Source: Aquificaceae bacterium (GTDB lineage Bacteria > Aquificota > Aquificia > Aquificales > Aquificaceae). From it: a DNA stretch of 64,000 bases. Position 1 is the stretch's first letter, and each line of letters starts with the position of its first letter. A model generated the notes under the pieces. That model made no database searches and was not told the DNA's origin. It saw only the letters and a program-made list of their open reading frames with translations. The stretch spans positions 1-64,000 of the forward strand of contig JBEPZX010000003.1 in the NCBI GenBank assembly GCA_041640635.1, given 5' to 3'. A program made the position numbers and the translations under genes. Shown one piece after another: positions 1,507 through 59,158 of this stretch.

Positions 1507-2256
1507 ATGGAATTTTTGCGTCTATTGTTTGCCTTCTTGATTGGAGCCGTTTTAGGAAGTTTTTACAACGTGGTAATACATCGCTTGAAGCTTGGTATGT
1601 CCATAGTGTATCCACCTTCGCACTGCCCTAGTTGCAAAACTCCCATAAGGTGGTACGACAATATTCCTATAATTTCTTACTTTATTCTTCGAGGCAAGTG
1701 TAGATACTGCGGAGCAAAAATTAGTCTAAGGTATCCCGTTGTGGAGATTTTGAGCGCCCTTTTGGCTGTCTTTTGCATACTAAGGTGGGATGTTACCTTT
1801 CAGACTTTCGTTTTTTTTGTGTTTTTTTCCATACTCTTGATACTCTCAGTTATCGATTGGGATACTTTCGAGCTACCGGATAGTTTAACACTAGGTGGTT
1901 TAGCCTTTGGTCTAGCCACGAGCATCTTCAGACAGGATTTTGGTATAAAGGACTCACTAATTGGAGCTTCTGTAGGTGGCATTTTCTTTTTGCTCATATA
2001 CTTGTATTACGTCAGAATAAGAAAATTTGAGGGGCTTGGTTTTGGAGATGTGAAGCTTTTGGCTTTTATCGGTTCAGTCACAGGTGTAAAAGGCGTTTTT
2101 TTTAGCGTATTTGTTGGTTCAGTTATTGGACTTTTGTGGATGTTGCCAATAATTCTAAAAAACAGAAATCTACAGTTTGCTATACCTTACGGTCCCTTTA
2201 TATCTATAGGATGTTTTCTTGGAGTAATATTGAACTTAGATAAGATTTTCTTATAA
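1507..2256 (+). CDS. pilD: type IV prepilin peptidase (A24 family)
   Basis: GSFYNVVIHR, two CxxC pairs (SHCPSC, GKCRYC), IDW, GFGDVKL and PYGPF motifs. Confidence 0.93.
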   Translation: MEFLRLLFAFLIGAVLGSFYNVVIHRLKLGMSIVYPPSHCPSCKTPIRWYDNIPIISYFILRGKCRYCGAKISLRYPVVEILSALLAVFCILRWDVTFQTFVFFVFFSILLILSVIDWDTFELPDSLTLGGLAFGLATSIFRQDFGIKDSLIGASVGGIFFLLIYLYYVRIRKFEGLGFGDVKLLAFIGSVTGVKGVFFSVFVGSVIGLLWMLPIILKNRNLQFAIPYGPFISIGCFLGVILNLDKIFL

Positions 2257-2265
2257 TATGCTTCT

Positions 2266-2631
2266 ATGAAAGTGGATAAGATGGAGAGAAAACTTCAAAC
2301 GCACTACAAAGATGTAAACCCTATAGAGCTAAAAAAATTACTGGAAAGAAAGTTAAGCACGGTCAGTCCTACTATGGAATATGTGAGAAATCTTGTCTTG
2401 GACCTAAAAATGTTTATGAGGATTCTAATAGATGAAGATTTTGACCTAAACGATGAGGCAAGAAAAGATTTTGTGAGCGCCATACTCGCCTTTGTAGAGA
2501 AAAAAAGAGTGATTCCAATAATTGGTTATTGGGATGTGTATAAGCTGGTCTCTTACGTAAAGGGTAAGCACAAATCGGAAATAGACAGATACTTTTCTCA
2601 AGTGAAGCACTACATTGCCAACTACATGTAA
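2266..2631 (+). CDS. hypothetical protein (weak YkvA/DUF1232-like IPIIGYWD motif)
   Basis: 121 aa ORF; TATAAT at 2252-2257 upstream. Confidence 0.6.
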   Translation: MKVDKMERKLQTHYKDVNPIELKKLLERKLSTVSPTMEYVRNLVLDLKMFMRILIDEDFDLNDEARKDFVSAILAFVEKKRVIPIIGYWDVYKLVSYVKGKHKSEIDRYFSQVKHYIANYM

Positions 2632-3602
2632 TGTTTAGATACCTGCTTATAAGAGTCCTTCAAGCCGTTCCTACTCTTTTGGGAGTAACTTTTCTTTCCT
2701 TTTTGATAATAAAGCTTGCTCCCGGTGATTACCTGGACCAATTGCGGCTAAACCCTCAGATATCCCAAGAGACCATAGAAGAGCTAAAGAGACAGTATGG
2801 ACTGGACAAGCCCCTGATAGTTCAGTATTTAAGTTGGTTAAAGTCCGCTCTTTTTTTTGATTTGGGATACTCCTTTCAGTATCAAACCCCTGTAACACAG
2901 CTAATAGGTGAAAGGATTGGTAACACTCTGCTTTTGACTGTTTCGTCCGCCGTTCTGTCGTGGATTTTAGCTTTTATTTTGGGGTTTTTGGCGGGTTACA
3001 AAGAAGATACCCTTTGGGATAGGATTATAAAGGTTTACGCTTACACCTTTATGTCCTTCCCATCCTTCTTTTTGGCTTTCATCCTTTTGCTTTTTGCTTC
3101 TAAGTCTGGTTTGTTGCCTGTTGGTGGGATTCACAGTCCCAACTTTGAGAGCATGAGCTTGGTAGAAAAGATTTGGGATTTGATTAAGCACATGGTCGTT
3201 CCTGTTCTTACCTTAGTTTTGGTTTCTACCGCAAGCCTTACACGGCTTGTGAGAAGTAGCGTGATAGAGGTTCTAAATAGCCCTATGGTTACTATGCTGA
3301 AAGCAAAGGGAGCTACAAACTGGATTATATTTAAACACGTTTTCAAAAATGCTCTAAATCCCTTTGTTACCTTGGTAGGATACGAAATAGCGGGATTGCT
3401 TTCAGGAGCGGCTCTGATAGAGATTATTGTTGATTGGCCAGGGTTGGGGTCTTTGATGCTGGAAGCTGTTTTGGCTCAGGACCTTTTTTTGGTGATGGGA
3501 GGGTTATACATTGGAACCATTATGCTAATTGTGGGGAATTTAATAGCTGATGTTCTGTTGGCTTTAATAGACCCAAGGGTGAGAGAAAAGGAGGTGTTAT
3601 AA
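2631..3602 (+). CDS. peptide/nickel ABC transporter permease (OppB/DppB family)
   Basis: APGD..., YGLDKPLIVQY, DLGYS, AKG, KHVFKNAL and IEIIVDWPGLG motifs. Confidence 0.92.
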   Translation: MFRYLLIRVLQAVPTLLGVTFLSFLIIKLAPGDYLDQLRLNPQISQETIEELKRQYGLDKPLIVQYLSWLKSALFFDLGYSFQYQTPVTQLIGERIGNTLLLTVSSAVLSWILAFILGFLAGYKEDTLWDRIIKVYAYTFMSFPSFFLAFILLLFASKSGLLPVGGIHSPNFESMSLVEKIWDLIKHMVVPVLTLVLVSTASLTRLVRSSVIEVLNSPMVTMLKAKGATNWIIFKHVFKNALNPFVTLVGYEIAGLLSGAALIEIIVDWPGLGSLMLEAVLAQDLFLVMGGLYIGTIMLIVGNLIADVLLALIDPRVREKEVL

Positions 3603-3609
3603 TTTATCC

Positions 3610-4113
3610 ATGGTTTACAGAGGAAGGGTTTGGAAGTTTGGAGACAACGTGGATACGGACCAAATTATACCTGCAAGGTATCTGAACACAACGGATCCTA
3701 ATGAGCTTGCAAGTCATGTTATGGAAGACTCAGAGCACCCTAACTTTGCCAGAGAGCACCAAAGTGGTGATATTATAGTGGCGGGTAGAAACTTTGGTTC
3801 AGGCTCCTCAAGGGAACATGCACCTATAGCCATAAAGTATGCAAACGTGCCTGTTGTTGTAGCCAAATCCTTTGCACGCATATTCTTTAGAAACGCCATA
3901 AACATAGGTCTGCCTATAGTGGAAGCTCCAGATGCTGTGGATGAAATAAACCACGGTGACACAATAGAAGTAGACATAACAGAAGGTGTGATAAGAAACT
4001 TAACCACAGGAAAAGAATACAAAGCTACCAAGTTTCCAGAAACTATTCAAGCCATCCTTAAAGCTGGTGGACTTATGGAGTATGCTAGAGAGAAGCTAAA
4101 AGGGGATGCTTAA
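3610..4113 (+). CDS. leuD: 3-isopropylmalate dehydratase small subunit
   Basis: DNVDTDQIIPARYL, NFGSGSSREHA and SFARIFFRNAINIGL motifs. Confidence 0.95.
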   Translation: MVYRGRVWKFGDNVDTDQIIPARYLNTTDPNELASHVMEDSEHPNFAREHQSGDIIVAGRNFGSGSSREHAPIAIKYANVPVVVAKSFARIFFRNAINIGLPIVEAPDAVDEINHGDTIEVDITEGVIRNLTTGKEYKATKFPETIQAILKAGGLMEYAREKLKGDA

Positions 4114-4648
4114 AGATAAGTTGAGAAAATTAATCAAAGAGAGGTCACTGAAGGTATCCAACGAACCCATATTCAAGCTATCATCGGGAAAACTTAGCAG
4201 GTATTACATAGACCTCAAACAGGTTACCTTAGACCCAGAAGGTAGTTTTTTGGTAGGAAAGTTGATGTATGAACTTATAAAGGACTTTGGTGTGGTGGGA
4301 GCTGGAGGCTTGACCCTTGGCGCTGACCCCATAGCCTACGCCGTATCCTTTATCTCCTACATGGACTCAAACCCAATAAAACCTTTTATAGTGAGAAAGG
4401 AGCCAAAAGGTCACGGAACAGGCAAACAGATAGAGGGACTCTTAAACAAAGGTGAAAAAGTAGCTGTTTTGGAGGATGTGGTGACTACCGCTAGCTCTTC
4501 CTTAAAGGCTGTAAGCGTATGTCAAAGAGAAGGCTTAGAAGTGGTTGGGGTGTTCTGCGTGGTGGACAGAGAGGAAGGTGGAAAGGAAAACATACAGTCC
4601 TTGGGATTGGAGCTTTACTCCCTTTTTAAGCTCTCGGACTTGCTGTGA
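4106..4648 (+). CDS. pyrE: orotate phosphoribosyltransferase
   Basis: FKLSSGKLSRYYID, RKEPKGHG and PRPP motif VLEDVVTT. Confidence 0.95.
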   Translation: MLKDKLRKLIKERSLKVSNEPIFKLSSGKLSRYYIDLKQVTLDPEGSFLVGKLMYELIKDFGVVGAGGLTLGADPIAYAVSFISYMDSNPIKPFIVRKEPKGHGTGKQIEGLLNKGEKVAVLEDVVTTASSSLKAVSVCQREGLEVVGVFCVVDREEGGKENIQSLGLELYSLFKLSDLL

Positions 4649-5364
4649 TTTTCAATGCACTGATTTTGTTTTTGGCTACTGCCATAGGAAGCGCTTTAAT
4701 CCTCTTTTGGAAAAGACCCTTTAGCTACAGAGTTGCCCTTTCCTTTTCCGGTGGAGTTATGCTTGTAGCTTCCTTTTTGAGTTTAATAGTTCCCGCTATA
4801 GAAAGTGGGGGCTTTTTGCTTGCAGCTACGGGCATTTTTTTGGGATTTGTTTTCCTCGGCATTTTAGAAAATCTCTTTCCACACGAGCACATTTTGAAGG
4901 GTTACGAAGGTATATTTTCATTGCACACCATCAAAAAGTTATACCTTATAACCATAGGTGTAGTTATTCACAACATACCAGAGGGCTTAAGTGTAGGCAT
5001 AGCTACAGCTCACTCAAAGGATCTAGGTTTTGACTTAGCGATAGCAATGGGAGTTCAGGACATACCTGAGGGATTGATAGTGAGTTTAACTCTTTACTCT
5101 ATGAAGATGTCTTTAGCAGTACCTATAATCGTAGGTGTATTAAGTGGTTTAGTGGAGTCACTTTCTGCACTTTTTGGGTATATAGCCTTTGAACTAGTGA
5201 AGGATTTAATATCTCTTGGGCTTGGCTTTGGTGGTGGTGCAATGATTTACGTAACTGTAAAAGAAGTCTTTCCTGAGATTTACACTCAATCAAACAATCA
5301 CCTAAAAATAACCCTCGGATTTCTTTTGGGTTTTATGCTTATGCTCTTTTTAGAGACTATGTAA
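4645..5364 (+). CDS. ZIP family metal transporter (GufA-like)
   Basis: GVMLVASF, HNIPEGLSVG, QDIPEG and GAMIYV motifs; multiple TM segments. Confidence 0.9.
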   Translation: MIFNALILFLATAIGSALILFWKRPFSYRVALSFSGGVMLVASFLSLIVPAIESGGFLLAATGIFLGFVFLGILENLFPHEHILKGYEGIFSLHTIKKLYLITIGVVIHNIPEGLSVGIATAHSKDLGFDLAIAMGVQDIPEGLIVSLTLYSMKMSLAVPIIVGVLSGLVESLSALFGYIAFELVKDLISLGLGFGGGAMIYVTVKEVFPEIYTQSNNHLKITLGFLLGFMLMLFLETM

Positions 5365-5479
5365 ACATGTGAAATAGATTAAGCAACTCAAATGTTTTTG
5401 CATAAAAGCAATGGGAGCTCTTAAATAAATATTTCCAAAAACCACTACCAAGCGAATTACGGTGTTAAAATATTTGTCC

Positions 5480-6079
5480 ATGCATTACGATGTAGCAATA
5501 GTAGGTGGAGGCGCAAGTGGTCTATCGTGTGCTTTAACTTTAGCCTCAGCTCAAGGTAGAGGATGGCAATGGGCTGAAGGAAGAAAGTATATCCTCTTTG
5601 ACAAAGACAGCTCAGACCTCAAAAAAGCCTACCTAAGGAATGTGCCTGGAGTAACAGAGACTCAAGGAGAAGAATTGTTGCAAACTATACGTGAGCAAAT
5701 TAACCAGTGGGGTGGTGTAGAATTTGTGGACAAAAAGGTTACCAAAATAGAGAAAACGGAAAGCGGTTACAAAGTTACGTGCGAAGACGGCTCGAGCATA
5801 GAAGCAACTTACGTGGTTCTTGCAACTGGTTTTCACTCCTTTGACATTCAAGGACTCCAGTTGGAAGTGGTGGAAAATCCCAAATCGCCAAAACCTGGAA
5901 GGGTGATGATACTTCACAAAGATTACGAGGCTTTACCAAACTTGTTTGTGGCTGGTACATTGGCAGGTCTTAGCTCTCACTTTACATCCTGTGCTGGCTC
6001 TGGAGTAGAGATAGCCACAGAGATACTTTCACGAATGGTTGGTAAACGCATAGTTATACACGACGTGCCACAATCTTGA
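5480..6079 (+). CDS. FAD-dependent oxidoreductase (short thioredoxin-reductase-like, FAD domain only)
   Basis: DVAIVGGGASG, VLATG and LFVAG motifs; ATG 5480 preferred over GTG 5462 because TGTTAAAAT lies at 5463-5471. Confidence 0.8.
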   Translation: MHYDVAIVGGGASGLSCALTLASAQGRGWQWAEGRKYILFDKDSSDLKKAYLRNVPGVTETQGEELLQTIREQINQWGGVEFVDKKVTKIEKTESGYKVTCEDGSSIEATYVVLATGFHSFDIQGLQLEVVENPKSPKPGRVMILHKDYEALPNLFVAGTLAGLSSHFTSCAGSGVEIATEILSRMVGKRIVIHDVPQS

Positions 6080-6927
6080 AAAGAACTCTAATAGCTTTCT
6101 TATTAACTTTTGTTTTCCTCCTTGCCTTTTTTTTATACGTGCCAATACAGGAGCTAAAAGAGAAGTTTTTTTCACTAAATCCCTTCAACTTGATGCTTGC
6201 CTTTTTTTTGTATACAGCAAGTCAGTTAGTTAGGGCTTTTAGGTGGAAAGTCCTAATACAGAACTTAACACTAAAGGATGCTTTCCTTATAAATAGCGTA
6301 AATATTCTCTTTAACAATGTTCTACCTGCTAGGACAGGAGAGCTAAGTTGGTTTTATTATGCCGGCAAACTAAGAGTCAGCATAAAAGTTTCTCTGTGGT
6401 CTTTCTTTGTGGGAAAGCTTTATGACTTAATCGCTTTGCTCTTTTTTGGCTTGCTAAGTATGTACATAGCTTACAGAAATCCTTACTTCTTAGTTTTTGT
6501 AGTGCTTGCATTGCTTGGTGCATTACTCTTTGGAAAGATGCATGTGTTTATTCCAGAGTGGAAAAGATTAAAAGACTTAAGAGATTTTGTAAAGGAAAAA
6601 GTAAGTTTAACTCTGTCCACGAAGCTCATGCTTTTTTCTTCCTCTTCTGTGCTTTTTAAGTTTTTGGCTATATACATATTGATAGGCGGTGAGTTTGTAA
6701 AAATTTTTTTAGGTTTTAGCGCTGGAGAGTTAAGCAGCATAATGCCAATACATAACTTTATGGGATATGGTACATACGAGGTCAGTTTTTCTTTGCCCCT
6801 AAAAGTTTTTGGAGATTCCATCAAGGATGCTTTAATTGATGCTTTCTTGGTTCATAACTTTCTGTTGCTTTCTTCTTTCATACTGGGCATACCTTCACTC
6901 TTGCTTTTGCACCTGACAAAGCATTAA
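6076..6927 (+). CDS. lysylphosphatidylglycerol-synthase TM / flippase-like membrane protein (UPF0104)
   Basis: RAFRWKVL, NNVLPARTGE and GYGTYE motifs; hydrophobic. Confidence 0.85.
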   Translation: MKRTLIAFLLTFVFLLAFFLYVPIQELKEKFFSLNPFNLMLAFFLYTASQLVRAFRWKVLIQNLTLKDAFLINSVNILFNNVLPARTGELSWFYYAGKLRVSIKVSLWSFFVGKLYDLIALLFFGLLSMYIAYRNPYFLVFVVLALLGALLFGKMHVFIPEWKRLKDLRDFVKEKVSLTLSTKLMLFSSSSVLFKFLAIYILIGGEFVKIFLGFSAGELSSIMPIHNFMGYGTYEVSFSLPLKVFGDSIKDALIDAFLVHNFLLLSSFILGIPSLLLLHLTKH

Positions 6928-6957
6928 GCTATCCTTATATGCTAAGATATTTGTATT

Positions 6958-8175
6958 ATGAAGATAGCTTTCTTAAAAACTGGACAAGAAGAGGGTGTAG
7001 GACGCCATATACTAGCTCTACTTAAAGCTTTCAAGGAACGTGGACACGACGTTTTAGAAGTTGACTTAAGGGAAGGGGATATAAGAAGAAACGTGGAAAG
7101 TCTTTCTAATTTTGGACCACAATTTGTGATGGATATAAACTCCACAGGATTTATAGTAGGGCAGCAAGAGAATGGAGAAAAGGTACCTTTATGCGATGCT
7201 ATGGGCTTTGCCCATGTGAGTATATTTACAGATGAGCCCTTGTTTTATTTTTCATCTATAATCGATGCTACAAGAGCCAACAATTTTCTTCCTATTGTTT
7301 GTGACCTTAAGTATGCAGACACGCTTAGGTTTTTGGGAAACGATAAAGGGTACTTCTACATAACACCTTTTATTGACAAGGCTCAAATGGTACCAACAAC
7401 AAAGGAAAAAGAAATAAACGTAGCTTTTCTTGGACCTGTTATAGATCCGGATATTGTAGCACAGAGCATATTGAGAAGCATTAAAGAGAAGTTTGCGCCT
7501 TTATTTTTCGAAGTAGGGGACTTTTTATTTAGAAACCCAGAAGCCCATCTGCTTTATGCTTTCGATTACATTTTTTCCATGTTCAATCAAACTCTGCAAG
7601 AAGAACTTCTAAAGTGGCGTCAAGAAAACCCTGAGGAGTTTTTGAGGTTTCTAAATGACATATCCGCATATGCTACGGCGAAAAAGAGGTGGTACATCAT
7701 CAACTTTTTGGATGGTTTGGAAGTAAAGATTATTGGAAAGGTAGAGGGTGAGCTGCCAGAAGGACATGAAGAGATCTTGGTAAATAATGTTCAAGATTTG
7801 TTAAATGTGTACAGCAGATCCAGACTTAGTATATTGGTTTATCCACACAATGTACCTACCGGTATAGGATTCTCTCCTTTAGAAGCATGCTATATGGGAA
7901 GTGCAGCTATGGTGGATTACCGTGCTACGCTTCCAGGCTTTTTGTTGCCAGGGCAAGAAATTATAACCTTTTTACCCATAGACAGAGCGGATATTGAAGA
8001 AAAAATTCTCTACTACCTGGACAACACCAAAGAACTTGAGGAGATAGCATCAAACGGACAGCAAAAGGTAATGCAAAGGTACACATATGAAGATAGAGCT
8101 GAGTTTATAATAGGCTTATTTGAAGACATACTGCAACAATCGGTAAATGCCAGTAGGGACAGGAACAGCGGTTAA
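6958..8175 (+). CDS. glycosyltransferase-like protein (CgeB family)
   Basis: C-terminal EACYMG...EKILYYLDN...IASNGQQKV..YTYEDRA GT-B pattern. Confidence 0.7.
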   Translation: MKIAFLKTGQEEGVGRHILALLKAFKERGHDVLEVDLREGDIRRNVESLSNFGPQFVMDINSTGFIVGQQENGEKVPLCDAMGFAHVSIFTDEPLFYFSSIIDATRANNFLPIVCDLKYADTLRFLGNDKGYFYITPFIDKAQMVPTTKEKEINVAFLGPVIDPDIVAQSILRSIKEKFAPLFFEVGDFLFRNPEAHLLYAFDYIFSMFNQTLQEELLKWRQENPEEFLRFLNDISAYATAKKRWYIINFLDGLEVKIIGKVEGELPEGHEEILVNNVQDLLNVYSRSRLSILVYPHNVPTGIGFSPLEACYMGSAAMVDYRATLPGFLLPGQEIITFLPIDRADIEEKILYYLDNTKELEEIASNGQQKVMQRYTYEDRAEFIIGLFEDILQQSVNASRDRNSG

Positions 8176-43910: not shown

Positions 43911-43999
43911 TGTATAATTTTAACACTTTTGATGGAGTATAGTCTTAAGAAAACAAAGGAAGCTATAACCTTTAAATCTAAAGACAAAAGGAGTTGCAC

Positions 44000-45301
44000 A
44001 TGGATATCCTTGAAAAAATAAGATCGCGTCAAGCAAAGGTTGGCATCATTGGTCTTGGATATGTAGGATTGCCTTTGGTGATCGAGTTTAGCAGAGCGGG
44101 CTTTAGTGTAACGGGTTTTGACATTGACCAAGAAAAGGTAAACACTCTAAGAAGTGGGAAAAGCTACATAAAGCACATTCCTTCTGAGGTAATTAGAGAT
44201 CTCAAAAACTTCACTCCAACCACTGACTTTTCCAAGCTAAGCGATATGGATTGTATAATTATATGCGTCCCTACCCCACTTAACGAGCACAGAGAGCCTG
44301 ACATGTCCTACGTTTTCAATACAGCCAGAACCATCGCAAGGTATCTTCGCAAAGGTCAATTGGTGGTCTTAGAGTCTACCACTTACCCCGGCACCACCGA
44401 CGAAGATTTGAGAGCTATCCTCGAAGAATCGGGGCTCAAAGCTGGTGTTGACTTTTACCTTGCATACTCTCCTGAACGAGAGGACCCCGGAAACAAAGAT
44501 TTCACAACTAGAAAAATTCCAAAGGTTGTGGGAGGGTTTACACCAAAATGTCTGGAGATAGCAAACACGCTTTACAGTCAGATTGTGGAAAAAACAGTTC
44601 CCGTCTCTTCGACCAAGGTGGCAGAGGCTACGAAGCTTTTGGAGAACATATACAGAGCGGTTAATATAGCCTTGGTTAACGAGCTTAAGATGCTCTTTGA
44701 TAGGATGGGTATAGATATATGGGAGGTTATAGAAGCCGCCAAGACCAAGCCCTTTGGTTTTCAAGCTTTCTATCCAGGTCCAGGTTTAGGTGGGCATTGC
44801 ATACCCGTGGATCCTTTTTATCTGACATGGAAGGCAAGGGAATATGACTTTTCTACGAAGTTTATCGAGCTTGCCGGAGAGATAAACACATACATGCCTT
44901 ACTATGTGGTGCAAAAAACCATAGAGGCTCTAAATCAAAGGGGTAAAGGCATCGTAGGTTCCAAAGTTCTCATTTTAGGTTTAGCTTACAAAAGGGATGT
45001 GGACGATGTAAGGGAATCGCCGTCTTTTAAACTTATGGAGATTTTGGAGAAAAAAGGTGCTCATGTGGACTACAACGACCCTTACTTCCCAACCTTTCCA
45101 AAAACTCGAAGGTATAAGTTCCACAAAGTTTCTGTGCCGTTGACGGCGGAAAATCTAAAAGCGTACGACTGTGTAATTGTTTCAACGGACCATTCCCTAT
45201 ACGATCCAGACTTTATCGTTCAAAACGCTCAGCTCGTTGTGGACACAAGAAACCTAATTAAGAATGCATCCAACTATCCTGATAAGGTAGTAAAGGCATG
45301 A
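44000..45301 (+). CDS. UDP-N-acetylglucosamine 6-dehydrogenase (WbpA-like nucleotide-sugar dehydrogenase)
   Basis: [38 protein letters not shown] and DVRESP motifs; AGGAG SD before ATG 44000. Confidence 0.92.
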
Positions 45302-46875
45302 AAGGAGCAAGCAAGAGGTTTGTTGGTCTGGTTGGTATTGGATACTGGGGCAAAAACATACTTCGCAACCTATATGAGTTGGGGGTAATTCATACCGCCT
45401 GCGATTTCAACGAAAACACTATAGCCCAATACAAAACATCCTATTCAGATATACACTATACAACCTCTTTTGACCACCTGCTAGACACGCCGGAGATTAC
45501 CGCAATAGTAATCGCAACGCCTGCAGCTACTCATTACGAACTTGCGAAGAAGGCTTTGCTTAAGGATAAAGACGTATTTGTAGAAAAACCACTCGCCTTA
45601 AACGTCAAAGAAGGACAGGAGCTTGTCCAAATTGCAAGAGAAAAAGGCAGAGTTTTAATGGTTGGTCACATACTTCAGTATCACCCTGCTGTAATAAAGC
45701 TCAAGGAGCTTATAGACAGCGGAGAACTTGGAAAGATACAGTACATCTACTCAAACAGGTTAAACATAGGTAAGCTAAGAACTGAGGAGAATATACTCTG
45801 GAGCTTTGCACCTCACGATATTTCTGTGATCCTCATGCTTGTTGGTGAAGAGCCTGTAAAGGTCAATGCCTTTGGTGGAGACTACTTAAACAATGGCATC
45901 CACGATATAACGATAACTACCCTGGAGTTCAAAAACAACGTAAAAGCTCACATCTTTGTCAGCTGGTTACATCCCTACAAAGAACAAAAACTGGTGGTGG
46001 TAGGTAACAAAGCGATGGCTGTTTTTGATGATGTGAGCAAGGAAAAACTCTTTATCTACCCTCACAGAATCGAATGGAAAAAGGGAAAAATTCCTGTTGC
46101 GCATAAAGCTGAGCATTACGTGGTTCCAGTCGAAGACAAGGAGCCCCTTAAAGAAGAACTAAAGCATTTCTTAGAGTGTGTAGAGAAGAGAAAAGAGCCC
46201 AAAACCAGCGGTGAAGAAGGGTTAAGAGTTCTAAGAATTCTAGAAACTGCGGAAGGTGTGATAAAGAAAGAAACCTTCTCAAAAGGATCGTTGGATAAAT
46301 CGTATTTTGTCCACGAGAGCTCCTATGTCGATGAAAACGTGGAAATTGGAGAAGGAACTAAAGTATGGCACTTTAGTCACATACTGAGTAACACAATAAT
46401 TGGGAAAAACTGCATAATTGGTCAGAATGTTATGATAGGACCCGATGTTACCATAGGGGACAGGTGCAAGATCCAAAACAATGTCTCCCTTTACAAAGGA
46501 GTGACGTTGGAGGATGATGTTTTTGTAGGTCCTTCTGCGGTTTTCACCAACGTTTACAACCCACGTGCCTTTATAGAAAGGAAAAAGGAGTTTTTGCCTA
46601 CAGTTGTTAAAAAGGGAGCAACCATAGGAGCAAACGCAACCATCGTATGCGGCGTAACCATCGGAAGGTATGCTCTGGTGGGTGCTGGTGCTGTTGTGAA
46701 AAGAGATGTTCCCGATTACGCCATAGTTGCTGGTGTGCCCGCAAGACAGATTGGTTGGGCATGCAAATGCGGTGTTACATTGAAGTTCAAAGACAACAAA
46801 GCTGTTTGTAGCTACTGCGGAAGTGAATATATGTTACAGGAGGGTAAAATAAAAGTTATTAAGGAGACATTATGA
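45298..46875 (+). CDS. fused Gfo/Idh/MocA dehydrogenase (WbpB-like) and hexapeptide N-acetyltransferase (WbpD-like)
   Basis: N-terminal GIGYWG, EKP and SFAPHD; C-terminal [29 protein letters not shown] and CKC...CSYC. Confidence 0.88.
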
Positions 46876-47126
46876 AGGTTAAAGCTACTATCAAGGGTGA
46901 TAGGATTAGTTTTTCTCAAATCGTAGTGTTCAAAAAGCCAGAGATTGAGGTGGAAATAGAGCTACCCGATGAAGATGTACTCTTATACTCTGAACAGGAT
47001 ATGGAAAGCATGCCCCTTATTCAACTTGCACACCTTATATGGGACAACTTGGAAGCTGGCGGAGAGCGAAGCAACAGAAACTACGGAGAGATACTAACGG
47101 ATATTCTCATGGAGAAAAGCACATGA
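46872..47126 (+). CDS. small acidic antitoxin-like protein
   Basis: 84 aa; AAGGAG SD at 46861-46866; ATGA overlaps on both sides; beta-rich N-terminus ([10 protein letters not shown]...EVEIEL) and helical C-terminus ([12 protein letters not shown]); directly upstream of a PIN domain. Confidence 0.6.
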
Positions 47127-48709
47127 ACATACTGCTTGATTTGAACGTTGTCATAGACTTTTTAATACCAAAACGTAAAGGACACGAGCTATCAAAAAAG
47201 GTGCACCATATTATAATAGAACAAGGCTTTACATTGTGGATGTCAGCATCGAGTGTGAGTAATATTTGGTATATGCTTGCGGAAGAAGCAAGAAAATACG
47301 GAGCAAATCTTGATTACGTTAACCTCGAGTTTAAAAGATACGTACAGGATGTAAAGATCTTTTCCGTTACTGGATCAAGCGTTCGTGAAGCCATAAACTC
47401 CAATGTTAAGGATTTCGAAAACCACATCATCTACACCAACTTTAAAAGGATTGCACCTGATGGGCTGATAGTAAGCAACGACAAAAACTTTGGAAATTAC
47501 GACCATGTGTTAACACCACAGGAGTTTATAGATAGTTATGGAAGTTTGAGAAAAAGTACAGCCATTCCTCTGCTTGATCTAAAACAAGAGTACCGTTACA
47601 TGCTCGAGGATATAGATAATGCTCTTTTGAAAAACATAGCTGATGCCAAATACATCCTGGGACCAGAAGTAAGGGAATTGGAGCAAAAAATAGCCGAGTA
47701 TCTAGGAGTAAAACACTGCATAGGCTGTTCCTCTGGAACAGAGGCGTTGGTGCTGTCTCTGAGGGCTTTGGCTATAAAAACAAAGGGCAAGGAGTATTTT
47801 GATAGGACGGATAAAATCATAACCACACCTTTTACCTTTACAGCCACAGGGGATGCTATACTCAGAGCAGGAGCAACACCTGTTTTTGTGGACATAGACC
47901 CAAAGAGCTTTAACATAGATCCAGATAAGATAAGAAAGTATCTATCTATGCATTATAGATCCAACGGTTCCCGTGTGGTTGGCATAGTTCCCGTTCATCT
48001 CTATGGTCACCCGTGTCATATGGACCAGATAATGGAAATCGCCAGAGAGTACGATCTTTTTGTGGTTGAGGATGTGGCTCAGGCTTTCGGTGGTATGTGG
48101 AAAGGTCAAAAGCTTGGGTCCATCGGTCACACAGGAGCCTTTAGTTTCTTCCCATCTAAGAACTTAGGTGGCTTTGGTGACGGAGGCATGGTTGCAACCA
48201 AAGACGAGGAAATAGCAGAGCTTGTGAGAATGCTTATAAAGCACGGTGGTAAGGACAAATACAACGTAGAACACATAGGCTACAATGCGCGGCTTGACAC
48301 CATCCAGGCAGCTATACTTTTGGCAAAGCTAAAGCATATAGACGAGTTTAACCAAAGAAGAAGAAAGATAGCGCAAATCTACAACCAAAAGCTTGAAGGT
48401 CTAAATGTTGGCTTGCCCATCGTTGAAGACAGCAATGTATACCATGTGTATCACCAATACACCATAAGAGTCCCAGCTGATAAGAGGGATAAACTCCAAG
48501 GATACCTAAAGGCAAACAACGTAAGCACCATGGTTTATTACCCTGTGCCACTCCACAAGATGAAAGTGTTTGAGGGTAGGTGTGAGGCTATAGACATAAT
48601 TGAAGCGGAAGTCGCACCTAAGGAAGTTTTGAGCCTACCAATAGAGCCTTTGCTTACAGAAGAGGAAATTGACTTTGTGTGCACTGCCATAAGGGAGTTT
48701 GAATGGTAA
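47123..48709 (+). CDS. PIN (VapC-like) domain fused to a DegT/WbpE-type PLP aminotransferase
   Basis: GGAG SD at 47111-47114, ATG 47123; aa 1-137 carry ILLDLNVVIDFL, SASS, KDFEN, IVSND and VLTPQEF (PIN); from aa 148 IPLLDLKQEY, SSGTEAL, VHLYG, EDVAQ, SFFPSKNLG and YNARLD; 528 aa with no internal stop. Confidence 0.85.
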   Translation: MNILLDLNVVIDFLIPKRKGHELSKKVHHIIIEQGFTLWMSASSVSNIWYMLAEEARKYGANLDYVNLEFKRYVQDVKIFSVTGSSVREAINSNVKDFENHIIYTNFKRIAPDGLIVSNDKNFGNYDHVLTPQEFIDSYGSLRKSTAIPLLDLKQEYRYMLEDIDNALLKNIADAKYILGPEVRELEQKIAEYLGVKHCIGCSSGTEALVLSLRALAIKTKGKEYFDRTDKIITTPFTFTATGDAILRAGATPVFVDIDPKSFNIDPDKIRKYLSMHYRSNGSRVVGIVPVHLYGHPCHMDQIMEIAREYDLFVVEDVAQAFGGMWKGQKLGSIGHTGAFSFFPSKNLGGFGDGGMVATKDEEIAELVRMLIKHGGKDKYNVEHIGYNARLDTIQAAILLAKLKHIDEFNQRRRKIAQIYNQKLEGLNVGLPIVEDSNVYHVYHQYTIRVPADKRDKLQGYLKANNVSTMVYYPVPLHKMKVFEGRCEAIDIIEAEVAPKEVLSLPIEPLLTEEEIDFVCTAIREFEW

Positions 48710-49809
48710 AGGTTGCAAGTGTAGTTGGAGCAAGACCGCAATTTGTAAAGTTAAAACCCGTTGCCGATACGCTAGAAAGCACCGAAGTGGAGCACGTAAT
48801 TATCCACACAGGTCAACATTACGATTACGAGATGTCAAAGGTTTTCTTTCAAGAACTGAGCCTTCCGGAGCCAAAGTATAATTTAGACGTAGGTTCTGCC
48901 ACACATGGGAAGCAAACGGGAGAGATGCTACAGAGGATAGAAAAAGTTCTACTGGAAGAAAAACCAGACATAGTTTTGGTTTACGGGGACACGAACTCTA
49001 CTTTGGCAGGAGCTTTGGCAGCTGCCAAGATACACATACCTGTGGCTCATATCGAGGCAGGTCTCAGAAGCTACAACAAACGCATGCCGGAGGAGATCAA
49101 CAGAGTCCTCACAGACCACATTTCGGATATACTCTTTTGCCCCACACATAGAGCTGTGGAGAATCTAAAGAAAGAAGGCATAGAGAAAGGTGTGTATTTT
49201 GTGGGTGATGTTATGTACGATGCGGTGCTCCAATTTGGTGAAGTTGCCCAAAGAAAATCCCAGATACTCTTAAGATTGAATCTTGAACCAAAAGCTTACG
49301 CCTTGGCTACCGTGCACCGTGCGGAGAACACCGATGATTTAGGACGTCTCGAAAGGATATTTCTGGGACTGTCCAGACTTGCCCAAGAAGGACTAAAGGT
49401 GGTTGTACCTCTCCATCCAAGAACTCGAAAGGTGCTTTCATCTCTCAGTATATCTGGCACTTTTCACACAAACCCTTTGATCATTGAACCTGTATCTTAC
49501 TTGGATATGCTCATGCTTGAAAAAAACGCACGAGTTATTTTAACGGATTCGGGTGGTGTCCAAAAGGAAGCATACTTTTTCAGGGTTCCCTGTATCACTT
49601 TAAGGGAAGAAACCGAATGGGTAGAGACTGTGGAAACAGGCTGGAATGTTCTGGTGGGAGCTGACTCAGTTAGGATCATAAATGCGGCTCTGAATGCAAA
49701 ACCTGGCACAGAGTCTGAATTTCCATATGGAGATGGAAAGGTGGGGGAGAAGGTGGAGGGGGTTATAGTAAACACAAATTATAAGTTTCTGAGAGAGGTT
49801 TATCGATGA
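48703..49809 (+). CDS. wecB: UDP-N-acetylglucosamine 2-epimerase, non-hydrolysing (WecB/WbpI-like)
   Basis: GARPQFVK, HTGQHYD, GDTNST, HIEAGLRS, MPEEINR and TDSGGVQKEA motifs. Confidence 0.93.
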   Translation: MVKVASVVGARPQFVKLKPVADTLESTEVEHVIIHTGQHYDYEMSKVFFQELSLPEPKYNLDVGSATHGKQTGEMLQRIEKVLLEEKPDIVLVYGDTNSTLAGALAAAKIHIPVAHIEAGLRSYNKRMPEEINRVLTDHISDILFCPTHRAVENLKKEGIEKGVYFVGDVMYDAVLQFGEVAQRKSQILLRLNLEPKAYALATVHRAENTDDLGRLERIFLGLSRLAQEGLKVVVPLHPRTRKVLSSLSISGTFHTNPLIIEPVSYLDMLMLEKNARVILTDSGGVQKEAYFFRVPCITLREETEWVETVETGWNVLVGADSVRIINAALNAKPGTESEFPYGDGKVGEKVEGVIVNTNYKFLREVYR

Positions 49810-55379: not shown

Positions 55380-57175
55380 ATGTGTGGGATAGCTGGCATA
55401 ATCACAAAAGGCAGGATTGAGAAAGGTATTATAGAGGCTATGACTGAAGCAATTGCACATCGAGGTCCAGATGGACATGGATACTACTACTGTAAGAATT
55501 TCGTATTTGGACACCGAAGGCTCGCTATTATAGATCTTAGCGAAGCGGGACATCAGCCAATGGAGTATATGAACAGATACGTTATTACCTACAACGGCGA
55601 GATCTATAATTATCTTGAGCTTCGTAAAGAGCTGGAACAAGTTGGATACAGATTCCAAACCCATACAGACACAGAGGTAATAATGGCAAGTTACGATTAT
55701 TGGGGAGTAGAGTGTTTAAATAAGTTCAACGGGATGTGGGCTTTTGTAATTTATGATAAGCAGAAGGATACATACTTTATGTCGAGGGACAGATTGGGAA
55801 AAAAGCCCTTTTATTACTATAAGAACCATGACACATTCGTATTTGCTTCAGAGATAAAAGCCTTGTTAGCCCATCCACTGATAAAACGAGAGCCAAACAC
55901 GGATTTTTTGTGCGATTATCTAAGAAAGGGTTGTAGAGAGTATGTAAGAGAAACAGCTTTCAGAGGTATTTATAGACTTGACCCAGCTTCTTACTTTGAA
56001 GGTGGAATTGATGACTTGCTTTATAACTTCAAACCGGTTAAGTTTTGGCAAATTAATCCAAACTTAGAGCACGAGGAGTTCGACGAAAAAAAACAAGAGA
56101 GTATGCAAGACAGTATTACGAACTGTTAAAAGACGCTGTAAGGCTTAGACTTAGGGCTGATGTAAAAATTGGCATTACATTATCCGGCGGTTTAGATAGT
56201 AGCTTTGTTGCTTACCTTGTCCACGAGCTACCTAAAGAGCATGGTCGACAAGAATTAATGGAAACCTTTTCGAGCGTCTATCCAAGTCAAGAGACGAAAT
56301 ACTGCGACGAAAGCTACTTTATAGACATTCTTGCAAAGAAGTTAGGCTTACACTCAAACAAAATTGAACCTAAGGAGGAAGACATTTCCAGAGAATTGGA
56401 AAGGGTGATCTGGCATATGGAAAATCCCCCAGAGAATACATTGATGTCCTGTTGGCATACCTTCAAACTTGTAGAATCAACGGATGTAAAAGTCATAGTT
56501 GATGGATAAGGAGCCGATGAACAGTTAGCGGGCTATTTGCCGTATATCATACACTACATTTATTCTTTACCCAAGCTTTTTGAAGCAATAAAAGAATCTA
56601 AGGCATTAATGGACATACCTAGCGCTAAAAAATACATAGCTGTAGGGATATTTCTTAGAATAGCTAAAAGCATTTTGGGAAATAGGTTACTAAGGTTTTT
56701 CTTGCAGGGACTTTTTAAGAAAGATTTAGTTGCAAATCTGAATGAAAAGTTAGCTAAGGATACTGTAACGAGTTTGAATACGCTTCTACATTATGCTGAT
56801 CATACATCCATGGCATACGGAGTTGAAGTTAGAAATCCTTTTTTAGACTACAGATTGGTTGAGTTTTTGGCTTCTGTCCCAGCCTGCTATAAAATAAGAA
56901 ATGGATGGACCAAGTATATTGCAAGACTGGCATTCGATGGTAAACTTCCTGATGAAATCGTTTGGAGGCGTGATAAGATGGGTTGACTCGTACCTAAAGA
57001 CAGCTAACTTAGAGAGTGGGCTGAGAAAGAAATTGGTAATCATGAAATAGCATCTAACGTCCTTCTGTATAAAGAAGTCATTGAAGGCACCAACTGTCGT
57101 ATTTGTGTGGATCTGTTGAATCTTTCAGAAATTGCTAGAGCGTCGAGTATTTGTTTACACATTCCAAGAAAGTGA
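55380..57175 (+). pseudogene. asnB: asparagine-synthase-like amidotransferase pseudogene
   Basis: MCGIAG start; -1 frameshift at the A8 run 56086-56093 (continues ...LRADVKIGITLSGGLDSS); in-frame stops at 56507 (DG*GADE), 56984 (KMG*) and 57005. Confidence 0.9.
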
Positions 57176-57289: not shown

Positions 57290-59158
57290 ATGTGTGGAAT
57301 TTTTGTAGCAGTAAACCTAAATGGTTTTTTTGATATAAGTGACTATAAAAAATTCGTTTCTTTAACGGACATGGTCCGATATAGGGGCCCTGATGCATCA
57401 GGATACAAAACTTTTAATATAAAGGAGTCCTCTTCCCCAAATAACACCTTTGATGTTTTTCTAGGTCATCGTAGATTATCTATAATAGATCGTTCAGATA
57501 CTGGAAATCAACCTTTCGACGACGGAAGTGGTTGTTGGATTGTATTCAACGGTGAAATATATAACTACGTTGAGTTGAGAGAAGAATTAATTAACAAAGG
57601 ATACGATTTCAAATCCAAGACAGACACTGAAGTGATCTTAAAGATATACCGAGCTTATGGGGAAAAGGGATTTTCAAAATTGAATGGTATGTGGGCATTT
57701 GCAATTGTTGACTTCCCACAAAAAAAAATAATTTTAAGTAGAGACTATTTCTCAATAAAGCCCCTTTACTATCTCGTTACATCCAAAAATGAGATTTACT
57801 TTTCCAGTGAAATAAAGCAATTACTTCCAATGTTACACAAGAAAGAAGTGAATAAGAACACTATGTATAAATTTTTGCAGCAGGGGTTGCTAGATTACAA
57901 CGAAGAGACTTTCTTTGAAGGTATATTGAAGGTAAAACCAAAGACAAACTTAATAATCAAAATGGATAAGAAGACAATTGAAAATATTAAGTACTGGGAA
58001 TATAAGATCGAGGAAATGAACGAAGAGAGTGCGCTAGAAAAATTTAGGGAGATTTTTTTCGACAGTGTTAGAATAAGATTAAGGAGCGATGTAAAAGTAG
58101 GTGCTTTATTAAGCGGAGGGCTCGATTCATCAAGCATAGTTGTAGCTACTGATCTTTTTCAGAAAGGTATTGAAACCTTTTCTGTGGTAGCAAAGGATAA
58201 AAGATATAGTGAAGAGAAATTTATTGATATCTTAGTAGAGAGAAAACAAATAAAAAATCACAAACTCTACTTTGAACCAGAAATGGTTCTCAAAAACATC
58301 TATAAAGTAGTTTATCATCAAGATGAACCATTTGGAGGGTTAAGCGTAGTAGCTCAATATAGTATATTAAAAGAAATAAAAGAAATTTCCGATGTGATTG
58401 TAATTCTGAGCGGCCAAGGAGGGGATGAAATTTTGATGGGATACTTAAAATATTTTTTCTTTAATATAAAAGAACTGATAAAACAAAAAAAGTTTGGTGA
58501 TGTACTGATTCAATTGATGCATTCCATTTTAAAAAGAACTATTTTATGGCAGTTTAATATTCGCTTGGCAAAAAGATATATTCCTATTCTTAACAAAAGC
58601 CTAAATTACATCAAAATAAATGGTGAGGTTGAACCTATTTGGAAATACAACACTTTAACAGAAAGACAAATGCTTGACATAGACAGATATTCAGTACCGG
58701 CTTTAACACACTACGAGGATAGGAACTCTATGGCCCATTCGTTAGAAATAAGATTGCCTTTTTTAGATCCTCGATTAGTTAATTTGTTACTTAGCGTTTC
58801 AACAACTTTAAAACTTAAAAATGGATGGACCAAATACATCATAAGAAAGTCTTTAATAGAGTTGCCTGATGAAATCCGTTGGAGAAAGGATAAACAAGGT
58901 TTTATAATACCAGAAGAGAGATGGTTAAAGGAAGATCTACGAGGAGTTATTGCAAGCCATTTCAAAACAAGTGTATTGAATGAAATGGGAATTATAGACA
59001 GTAAACTCTTCCTTGAAGCATATAATAATTTTCAGATAAACAAAGGACTCTATAGCTATAAAGATGTTTCCAGAGTATTCATAGCGGAATTATGGGCAAA
59101 AAGGTTTTTCAACTTTAAATGTGGAGACTATACGAATGAAAATAATCAATTTAGGTAA
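57290..59158 (+). CDS. asnB: asparagine synthase-like glutamine amidotransferase
   Basis: MCGI, RGPD, HRRLSIID, LSGGLDSS, GQGGDE, EDRNSMAHSLEIRLPFLD and KQGF motifs. Confidence 0.93.
   Translation: MCGIFVAVNLNGFFDISDYKKFVSLTDMVRYRGPDASGYKTFNIKESSSPNNTFDVFLGHRRLSIIDRSDTGNQPFDDGSGCWIVFNGEIYNYVELREELINKGYDFKSKTDTEVILKIYRAYGEKGFSKLNGMWAFAIVDFPQKKIILSRDYFSIKPLYYLVTSKNEIYFSSEIKQLLPMLHKKEVNKNTMYKFLQQGLLDYNEETFFEGILKVKPKTNLIIKMDKKTIENIKYWEYKIEEMNEESALEKFREIFFDSVRIRLRSDVKVGALLSGGLDSSSIVVATDLFQKGIETFSVVAKDKRYSEEKFIDILVERKQIKNHKLYFEPEMVLKNIYKVVYHQDEPFGGLSVVAQYSILKEIKEISDVIVILSGQGGDEILMGYLKYFFFNIKELIKQKKFGDVLIQLMHSILKRTILWQFNIRLAKRYIPILNKSLNYIKINGEVEPIWKYNTLTERQMLDIDRYSVPALTHYEDRNSMAHSLEIRLPFLDPRLVNLLLSVSTTLKLKNGWTKYIIRKSLIELPDEIRWRKDKQGFIIPEERWLKEDLRGVIASHFKTSVLNEMGIIDSKLFLEAYNNFQINKGLYSYKDVSRVFIAELWAKRFFNFKCGDYTNENNQFR

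Follow-up and report, generated by a model that had tools for sequence, protein, structure and literature searches.

Introduction

Type II toxins are normally free small proteins, which a host can lose by one nonsense mutation. In bacterial genomes, no loci are known to be exchanged more often than surface-glycan clusters. A vapBC toxin is a stand-alone PIN protein of about 130-150 aa with conserved active-site acids (S1 Asp, H4 carboxylate), encoded in a two-gene operon. It inhibits growth by cleaving RNA, and an antitoxin that binds it directly, made of a DNA-binding front and an acidic tail particular to its toxin, rescues the cell and represses the operon. The vapBC cluster nearest to the locus described here is PIN_3.1 (Matelska et al., 2017, PMC5499597). 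Small AbrB-related genes adjoin PIN genes and are classed as COG2880/DUF104/AF2212 antitoxins by Makarova et al. (2009, PMC2701414). A toxin-type PIN can also be the N-terminal domain of a larger protein, as in PhoH2 (PIN-PhoH; PMC5499597, Table 1), whose other part, an RNA helicase/ATPase, works on the same substrate as the PIN. The UDP-ManNAc3NAcA pathway (WbpA-B-E-D-I; PMC10622841) includes the 3-aminotransferase WbpE/WlbC.

The locus described here lies in a 64,000-nucleotide stretch of an Aquificaceae assembly (the window). It resembles vapBC in having a PIN_3 domain with a VapC fold and a small overlapping upstream gene with an acidic tail, and T-x-Y-Y/DFED-type motifs are common to stand-alone vapBC-like pairs and fused PINs. 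In contrast to vapBC, the PIN is fused to a 381-aa enzyme in a longer operon, and the window copy has Asn at the presumed position of the H4 aspartate. Throughout the fused family, the toxin forms the N-terminal part of a biosynthetic enzyme of 500-550 aa within a glycan operon, and no promoter of its own is evident. The small gene beside the PIN recalls the COG2880/DUF104/AF2212 group, although the window protein itself has no PF01954 match. Gene set and order, wbpA-wbpB/D-wbpE-wbpI, are like those of the WbpE/WlbC pathway, but the window enzyme has a 147-aa PIN extension and a clade-specific insertion (SLRALAIK..EYFD). Whereas PhoH2 pairs its PIN with an RNA helicase/ATPase, the PIN here is joined to a PLP sugar enzyme for which no link to RNA is known.

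Results

A PIN domain and an aminotransferase in one reading frame

ORF translation and Pfam searches revealed a single open frame of 528 aa at 47123..48709 (+), comprising an N-terminal PIN_3 domain and a complete WbpE-type aminotransferase, as the first-pass annotation had proposed; all coordinates given there, including the Ile148 codon at 47564, held on re-examination. The assignment of the first ~137 aa to a PIN domain was borne out when aa 1-146 were searched alone (PF13470 at aa 3-101, E 2e-7, 32.3 bits against a cut-off of 27), and the VapC fold was recovered by Foldseek, with PAE0151 (E 3e-4) and VapC20 (E 5e-4) as best matches. A longer frame of 556 aa is available from ATG 47039, but close relatives all start at the MNILL/MDILL position, and 47123 is therefore the start.

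Table 1. Operon features in the window.
Feature	Position	Strand	Evidence
WbpA-type UDP-GlcNAc 6-dehydrogenase	43994..45301	+	Pfam UDPG_MGDP_dh N/central/C
WbpB-type 3-dehydrogenase fused to WbpD-type hexapeptide acetyltransferase	45298..46875	+	Pfam GFO_IDH_MocA + Hexapep
84-aa putative antitoxin	46872..47126	+	Family profile, PIN-subtype co-variation, predicted complex
PIN_3 (VapC-type) domain and linker, aa 1-147	47123..47563	+	PF13470
Aminotransferase first 32 residues, fused type	47564..47659	+	Identity to fused relatives
WbpE-type PLP aminotransferase body	47660..48709	+	Pfam DegT, cofactor residues
WbpI-type UDP-sugar 2-epimerase	48703..49809	+	Pfam Epimerase_2, E 3e-111

The enzyme half contains a DegT domain (PF01041, aa 164-524, E 3e-113), and D317, Q320 and the PLP lysine K346 (FSFFPSKN) align with the cofactor residues of WbpE. 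It matched Pseudomonas aeruginosa WbpE with E 3e-79 and structure 3nu8 with a TM score of 0.95, and these results, together with the wbpA-wbpB/D-wbpI flanks, support the WbpE-type assignment. Since the best match in both sequence and fold was the archaeal sugar transaminase 7b0d, the substrate was assigned by gene context, which points to a putative WbpE-type enzyme aminating UDP-3-keto-GlcNAcA.

A separate aminotransferase made from an internal start was rejected. The only in-frame alternative in the 16 codons upstream of the LLDL motif is TTG 47546, which has no SD at 4-12 nt and is as weak as had been suggested. Across 17 loci, no internal start was conserved: SD-linked in-frame starts occur in this stretch in three loci, at three differing positions, and two loci have no start codon there whatever. 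Contigs of one public run cover the junction bin at a depth of 243, and no indel is recorded there; the junction is not bridged by any of the 8 pieces displayed, and the run may be the window's own source sample, so independent homologs are the stronger proof of the frame. It is open in dozens of them, which rules out a sequencing error or a one-off read-through, and recurrence across many genomes likewise refutes the one-off accident that had been considered at first. The predicted fold of the fusion (pTM 0.91) hints at a fixed PIN-enzyme interface, and thus at a structural role.

The wbpB-wbpD gene lies immediately upstream in two examined sets of fused loci and in L168, but not throughout a further set. 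Near the 84-aa gene, promoter-like sites were not in excess (14, versus 10.0 +/- 3.1 in shuffled sequences), and a search for a terminator of the module's own found nothing above shuffles. In the glycan loci of relatives, many small mobile-looking gene pairs lie nearby.

Distribution of the fusion

A search for the PIN+DegT architecture found it in several bacterial groups. The full-length fusion is present in 11 of 178 genomes of the window's phylum; a second phylum yielded it in 17 rows from 16 of 301 genomes, and 33 of the 150 listed 50%-identity representatives also carry it. All 35 long proteins matched by a PIN-only profile contain DegT, though the loci hold many other enzymes. Junction position and enzyme family are constant across fused loci, while at least three partner families and differing PIN subtypes fill the one slot, always in frame. 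The extensions of P0019, P0022 and P0040 were excluded from the counts, their scores with the PIN profile being below 15 bits, and seven further extensions proved to be different domains. The PIN part had no match in phage or plasmid collections.

Hundreds of proteins annotated simply as aminotransferases, in Atlas clusters of 236, 95, 77 and 58 members, probably carry a hidden nuclease domain. The architecture is already in the literature: Supplementary Table S1 of Matelska et al. (2017, PMC5499597) lists 8 PIN_3.1 proteins also bearing DegT, and its named cultured carriers include Acidovorax sp. JS42, Geobacter lovleyi SZ and Sulfurihydrogenibium azorense. Since "DegT" has 0 occurrences in the main text of that paper, the architecture was catalogued there and not discussed. 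The fusion is otherwise not previously discussed in the literature found; our search returned no paper on it, and passages of 10.1101/771931 and PMC3874152 held nothing pertinent.

A likely antitoxin gene upstream of the fusion

Re-reading the coordinates confirmed that the 84-aa gene has its own SD (AGGAG, 5 nt upstream of the ATG) and ATGA overlaps at both ends, with the wbpB-wbpD stop and with the fusion start. The protein has a beta-rich, AF2212/DUF104-like front (about aa 1-35) and an acidic tail, with a net charge of -9; in the window this tail has drifted. Direct family assignment was abandoned, since no match was obtained in Pfam, NCBIfam, a PF01954 genome search or a PDB sequence search. 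Atlas matches were all below 0.9, the nearest Pfam-bearing cluster being AF2212-like (0.83, a lead only). The 84-aa family profile matches genes that themselves bear weak AF2212-like hits, and partner genes at two fused loci match PF01954 weakly (E 0.02-0.03) and align with the front of the 84-aa family (hhalign 79%, E 2e-5). Elsewhere, fused loci have unrelated fronts, a DUF6364-like tail (E 0.03), or a 162-aa gene. The profile gave 12 matches in 178 genomes, every one at a fused locus, and the gene is present in all 6 close metagenome loci.

Over 12 non-independent pairs, similarity of the tail followed that of the PIN (Mantel r 0.94) more closely than similarity of the front did (r 0.44), a relation that linkage alone could produce, since tail and PIN are adjacent in the DNA. 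In the G009/G106 pair, similarity was 0.89 for the front, 0.05 for the tail and 0.18 for the PIN, while in G009/G170 the values were 0.00, 0.65 and 0.69. The predicted complex of small protein and PIN scored 0.57, versus 0.01 for the best control. The mark applied to such scores is passed by 116 of 157 solved pairs and by 2 of 215 mismatched ones, but 18 of the solved pairs and both mismatches do so at 0.60 or less. The runs share at least 61% of contacts, with partner pLDDT of at least 68, and the model lends weak support to binding of the PIN by the small protein. The VapBC-like layout recognized in the first-pass annotation is supported by the overlap, by the co-variation of tail and PIN, and by the nearest stand-alone PINs, which belong to ordinary small-gene and PIN pairs. 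The 84-aa gene likely behaves like a type II antitoxin.

Decay of the acidic triad and loss of the partner

The window PIN retains D6, D12, D97 and E99, but D100 is replaced by N. At this position, which was set by alignment and helix start and not by superposition, Asp is found in 18/18 stand-alone relatives, in 5/5 readable close fused loci, and in 19/19 other partner-bearing loci. Because Asn replaces an otherwise conserved residue, the window PIN may have lost some or all of its toxicity, although E99, next to N100 at the same helix start, might compensate.

In a table of 30 loci, which omits L155 (PIN truncated where the contig ends) and counts L170 as partner-less despite a doubtful 74-aa frame overlapping its start, the D6/E99/D100 triad is intact in 19 of the 20 partner-bearing loci and in 0 of the 10 partner-less ones, a pattern that reduces to 3 independent contrasts (starred branches of the PIN tree), all in one direction (sign test p 0.25). 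The sole partner-bearing locus without an intact triad is the window copy. The triad is also kept in all 18 stand-alone PINs and in 42 of 77 fused ones, a contrast inflated by the stand-alone PINs coming from one phylum and the fused from many. The S4 aspartate was left out of these counts because alignment columns 118-123 are shifted between the groups.

Decayed PINs are retained at full length across whole clades. The dN/dS values, 0.11-0.29 for the PIN, near that of the enzyme, and 0.22-0.26 for the 84-aa gene, indicate that both are under purifying selection. Within the close group, the PIN is most conserved in the helix that follows the triad (IIYTNFKRIAPDG).

An unfused paralog and the borders of the cassette

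Another wbpA-wbpB/D-wbpE-wbpI operon lies on contig C23 of the same assembly. Its aminotransferase is unfused, 384 aa long, and shares 96% identity with the window enzyme over the body; this copy may be a true paralog, or come from a co-binned strain. The earlier suggestion that glycan synthesis requires the PIN is therefore not borne out in this assembly. Unfused enzymes of the same clade are also found in the same gene order; L108-L113 and L119 were rejected as members of this group, since they comprise a fragment at the end of a contig and representatives of other DegT subfamilies.

Upstream, the cassette border is the 3' end of wbpB-wbpD, where nucleotide identity to C23 is 70-90% up to the stop. 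The right border lies near ILGPEV, with a step in nucleotide identity near 47640: the enzyme's first 32 residues are 69-84% identical to 7 fused relatives and 59% to the C23 paralog, whereas the following 190 aa are 96% identical to the paralog. PIN and enzyme trees conflict. AU tests, run on groups picked after the first trees had been seen, rejected monophyly of the fused enzyme halves (p 2e-32); they also rejected it for the enzymes joined to the PINs of one 99/96 clade (p 4e-75). The PIN tree shows two label changes and does not reject a single fusion origin (p 0.08). The shared enzyme body, the unshared first helix and the conflicting trees indicate that the cassette moves by recombination. 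In G147 and G150, orphan older partner genes lie upstream of a new partner and a new PIN.

Discussion

We propose that the locus is probably a type II vapBC-like module whose toxin has permanently become the N-terminal domain of a WbpE-type aminotransferase, an addictive passenger that is retired by missense decay. We observed the fusion and how widely it occurs, the modularity of its partner gene, its mosaic borders and the partner/triad pattern; the mechanism set out below, including toxicity, RNase activity, binding and addiction of a chromosomal glycan locus, is inferred. The cassette would consist of the antitoxin, the PIN and the first enzyme helix, placed at the wbpD/wbpE junction and read from the glycan operon via translational coupling. 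It would spread by recombination, with an upstream crossover in wbpD and a downstream one roughly 30 codons into the aminotransferase, so that each recombinant would automatically be in frame. In the active stage, the antitoxin tail would keep the PIN silent, and loss of the locus would become costly. Because a stop or frameshift against the toxin would also lose the downstream enzyme, retirement would proceed by missense change, after which the antitoxin gene would be lost and the dead PIN would stay as a folded passenger; alternatively, the 5' end would be exchanged for an unfused version. The window copy, with D100N, a drifted tail and an unfused paralog, looks like an early stage of this retirement. 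Among the roles first put forward, addiction or a retained TA insertion is favored over required regulation or scaffolding, since a PIN that is dispensable across the family (many enzymes unfused, many PINs decayed) fits selfish carriage better than a required regulator or scaffold. The stress or phage coupling also put forward there found neither support nor contradiction in these observations.

Functional coupling, in which an active RNase is tied to the state of the enzyme for the benefit of the host, as a checkpoint or abortive-infection switch linking surface glycan to growth arrest, seems unlikely to us. Its trigger could be dimerization, the binding of PLP or of a UDP-sugar, or a pathway-targeting phage protein. 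Exclusive fusion to DegT, a PIN dN/dS near that of the enzyme, and the variety of PIN subtypes and partner families in one in-frame slot would all fit coupling, and the predicted fold, together with a first helix of the fused type, suggests that the two domains are docked, but about half of the fused PINs are without the triad, unfused enzymes of the same clade occupy the same gene order, no phage or plasmid match was found, and recombination at the 5' end yields in-frame products without selection for coupling. It is similarly improbable that PIN-DegT proteins form an undescribed class of enzyme-gated toxins, in which the dimer would position and control the RNase, the state of surface-sugar synthesis or a phage attack on it would switch translation arrest, and toxin-antitoxin specificities would be swapped by recombination on an unchanging enzyme chassis.

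Domestication, whereby the PIN and small protein would now regulate or scaffold the enzyme or operon without catalysis, with the small protein as a DNA-binding repressor and the PIN docking it on the enzyme, is quite doubtful: full-length dead PINs persist in several lineages, the D100N window copy still has its partner gene and the post-triad helix is highly conserved, but triad-less loci are those without a partner, the opposite of what domestication predicts, and promoter-like sites show no excess. Repeated neutral accident, in which glycan loci gather TA pairs and a few of these insertions, once without the PIN stop codon, were tolerated without selection, is very improbable and largely refuted, since dN/dS is far under 1 for both PIN and small gene, junction and enzyme family never vary and the triad is intact in nearly all partner-bearing loci, even though relatives' glycan loci are crowded with mobile-looking pairs and the PIN tree permits more than one origin.

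Under the addictive-passenger reading, the covalent tie to a biosynthetic enzyme would give a selfish module an escape from deletion, and the fusion would give it a built-in route of spread through surface-glycan clusters. The family displays what would be a full life cycle: active with a partner, partner swapped, toxin decayed, partner lost, and unfused. With these stages and named cultured carriers available, the stabilizing or policing of glycan loci by toxin-antitoxin modules becomes directly testable.

Organization of the fused locus

The operon layout described in the first-pass annotation (coordinates, Shine-Dalgarno sequence, overlaps and a single frame) matches the sequence, with the small gene lying between the wbpB-wbpD fusion and the 528-aa frame, and with neighbours that are WbpA-, WbpB/D- and WbpI-like by Pfam. 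As proposed there, the front of the frame is a PIN domain, with an above-cut-off Pfam match to PIN_3 at aa 3-101 (E 2e-7 when aa 1-146 are the query). The remainder is an aminotransferase (Pfam DegT, aa 164-524), in which the PLP lysine K346, together with D317 and Q320, has aligned counterparts in WbpE. An AlphaFold2 model of the fusion, built from 37 fused sequences, reached pLDDT 94.5 and pTM 0.91, and its best fold matches were sugar transaminases, WbpE among them (TM 0.95). The expected PIN fold was recovered when the PIN part was folded alone (pLDDT 89.7), which matched PAE0151 and VapC toxins (best E 3e-4). The enzyme half was said to have no Met of its own and only a weak TTG as alternative start, and the TTG is indeed the sole in-frame alternative near the linker; no conserved internal start was found across 17 fused loci. 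Contigs of one hot-spring run, which may be the source sample, cover the junction, and no indel is listed there.

Coordinates of features in the window and in compared loci
Feature	Location	Size	Remarks
Small gene	46872-47126	84 aa	SD AGGAG; ATGA overlaps on both sides
PIN::DegT frame	47123-48709	528 aa	ATGA overlap with small gene
Alternative TTG	47546		no SD
Amidotransferase, asparagine-synthetase type, broken	55380-56986	249, 83, 149 aa	three frames; just upstream of intact copy
Amidotransferase, intact	57290-59158	622 aa	
Second wbpA-wbpB/D-wbpE-wbpI operon	L013 (G000:C23) 1990-7125		unfused aminotransferase; same assembly as window
Gene directly before fusion, G147 and G168	L106 1016-1504 (reversed); L107 1013-1501	162 aa	no Pfam match
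Small gene pairs in relatives' glycan loci	L015 13372-17858; L016 59-1808; L020 2998-3665; L153 3-338		

Distribution of the fusion

The fusion is not a one-off accident, since the architecture recurs across genomes of more than one phylum. In the window's phylum, 11 of 178 genomes have a full-length fusion (two further copies are truncated at contig ends), and a second sample (301 genomes, phylum of a Syntrophaceae genome) gave at least 17 full-length rows from at least 16 genomes among the 150 matches listed, beyond which lie 80 more rows; 11 of these 17 loci were inspected. Methylomicrobium sp. wino1, whose genome is complete, carries wbpB-wbpD-small gene-PIN::DegT. Among the best 150 representatives at 50% identity, 43 had N-terminal extensions longer than 60 aa: 33 PIN-like (leave-one-out profile, at least 25 bits, rounded), 3 doubtful and 7 other domains. 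The last (P0114, P0134, P0146, P0038, P0057, P0070, P0100) include DUF309, FdtA cupin and HAD by Pfam, and, by eye, a hexapeptide domain and an LpxC-like one, and this variety indicates that fusions at the DegT N-terminus are generally tolerated. When a PIN-only profile was run against long proteins (8000 candidates scored), 35/35 matches carried DegT, with Hydrogenothermus and Sulfurihydrogenibium among the source names, which hint that the window's phylum may be Aquificota. Atlas clusters with proteins 502-545 aa long, four in number (236, 77, 95 and 58 members), score 0.97-0.98 and may carry the PIN as well. One close fused relative, P0004, has an in-frame tandem repeat insertion (SHEPT/SP units) in the C-terminal third of its aminotransferase.

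The small upstream gene

The vapBC-like layout suggested earlier agrees with the nearest stand-alone PINs (25-28% identity), which sit in ordinary small-gene and PIN pairs away from glycan genes. The 84-aa protein itself gave no family match in Pfam and PF01954 searches, and a counterpart 44-46% identical occupies the same place in all six close metagenome loci (L152, 45%). Its profile (three sequences) had 12 matches across the 178 genomes, each of them at a PIN-DegT locus. Partner genes of two distant loci align with the front of this family and have weak AF2212-like/DUF104 matches; DUF104 is predicted, according to PMC2701414, to be an AbrB-related antitoxin that acts on PIN toxins.

Similarity over the partner's last 42 aa, acidic in all cases compared, tracks PIN similarity (Mantel r 0.94, 12 pairs), versus r 0.44 for the first 30 aa. 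G009 and G106 share a front but differ in tail and PIN, whereas in G009 and G170 it is the front that differs and the tail and PIN that are shared. These comparisons suggest a modular partner, and are no more than suggestive, because the pairs are kin and the tail adjoins the PIN. Complex prediction of the small protein with the PIN scored 0.57 against 0.01 for the best of three controls (contact agreement at least 61%, partner pLDDT at least 68), which lends weak support to binding; the mark was reached by 116/157 solved and 2/215 mismatched pairs, with 18 solved pairs and both mismatches at or below 0.60. The PINs of G147 and G168 make up a separate subtype with an intact triad, and the 162-aa gene in front of them is possibly an unrecognised antitoxin type. 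L175 holds, roughly 1 kb upstream of the partner and fusion, a second PIN-like gene that stands alone, is broken into two frames and has a small gene of its own.

Catalytic residues of the PIN domain

Matelska et al. (PMC5499597) describe the S1 aspartate as essential and the carboxylate that opens helix H4 as exceptional. D6/E99/D100 is present in 18/18 stand-alone relatives versus 42/77 fused copies (24/46 dereplicated). Among 30 loci with readable context, the triad was kept in 19/20 with a dedicated upstream gene and 0/10 without. This clean pattern is not statistically established, as it comes down to three independent contrasts; they agree in direction on the PIN tree, for which a sign test gives p 0.25.

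The window copy (D-E-N) is the only one of these 20 partner-bearing loci without the full triad, and its partner tail is the most drifted of its group (0.22-0.27 versus 0.48-0.68). Fold matches of the PIN part include, by title, a Shigella VapC D98N structure. A substitution of this kind inactivates VapC; in the window copy, E99 may compensate for N100. For pairs with measurable dS, dN/dS was 0.11-0.29 (PIN), 0.22-0.26 (small gene) and 0.08-0.16 (enzyme body), with one close pair at 0.88; every pair including the window was saturated. In a whole clade (L173, L174, L177, L178, L180) the PIN is retained at full length with neither the triad nor a partner gene; one of these loci, L174, lies outside a wbp context, behind a gene that is PilZ-like by eye.

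Mosaicism of the operon

On contig C23, which carries the second operon of the window's assembly, the wbpD stop overlaps the ATG of an unfused 384-aa enzyme, and this junction is the empty site of the cassette. The C23 copy could be either a paralogue or the product of a co-binned strain (assembly contamination 3.25%). Nucleotide identity to the window operon is 79-90% overall and patchy (52-69% in parts, 90-99% in others), which looks like repeated gene conversion or, again, co-binning. Enzyme residues 1-32 of the window are 69-84% identical to seven fused relatives and 59% to C23, whose own first 32 residues match 7/8 other unfused enzymes at 62-78%; the next 190 residues of the window's enzyme are 96% identical to C23. 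This switch therefore places a recombination border near ILGPEV.

In the enzyme tree, fused halves are spread over several clades that also hold unfused enzymes. AU tests, on groups picked after the first trees (30-31 rows each), rejected a single clade for the fused enzyme halves (p 2e-32), for the enzymes attached to a well-supported PIN group (p 4e-75) and for the PINs carried by the enzyme clade of the window (p 1e-4). They did not reject one common origin for the fused PINs as a whole (p 0.08). In G147 and G150, the new gene and new PIN are preceded by an orphan partner whose tail is that of a different PIN subtype, which points to serial replacement. Relatives' glycan loci are crowded with small gene pairs, which, by eye from translations, resemble nucleotidyltransferase/HEPN pairs and Uma2-like genes.

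Interpretation

These observations are probably best explained by a vapBC-like cassette, reaching from the end of wbpD into the first helix of the enzyme, that would have spread by recombination with products always in frame. While active it would be toxic and addictive; only missense changes could disarm it, since a stop codon would cost the cell its enzyme, and the antitoxin would then be lost or the 5' end replaced. The anatomy, the spread, the mosaicism and the co-variation are observed, and toxicity, binding, addiction and the sequence of steps are inferred from them. A toxin or defence switch gated by the enzyme is unlikely, and a domesticated regulator somewhat less likely still; a neutral accident is highly improbable.

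The component parts are already known. Supplementary Table S1 of PMC5499597 holds at least eight PIN_3.1 + DegT proteins (hosts Thioalkalivibrio, Nitrospina, Nitrococcus, Geobacter, Thauera, Beggiatoa, Sulfurihydrogenibium and Acidovorax), and 'DegT' is absent from the main text. A search of the open-access literature, extending to few subscription journals, found no discussion of or experiment on the fusion. We conclude that PIN-DegT is a real, widespread and uncharacterised variant of type II toxin-antitoxin systems.
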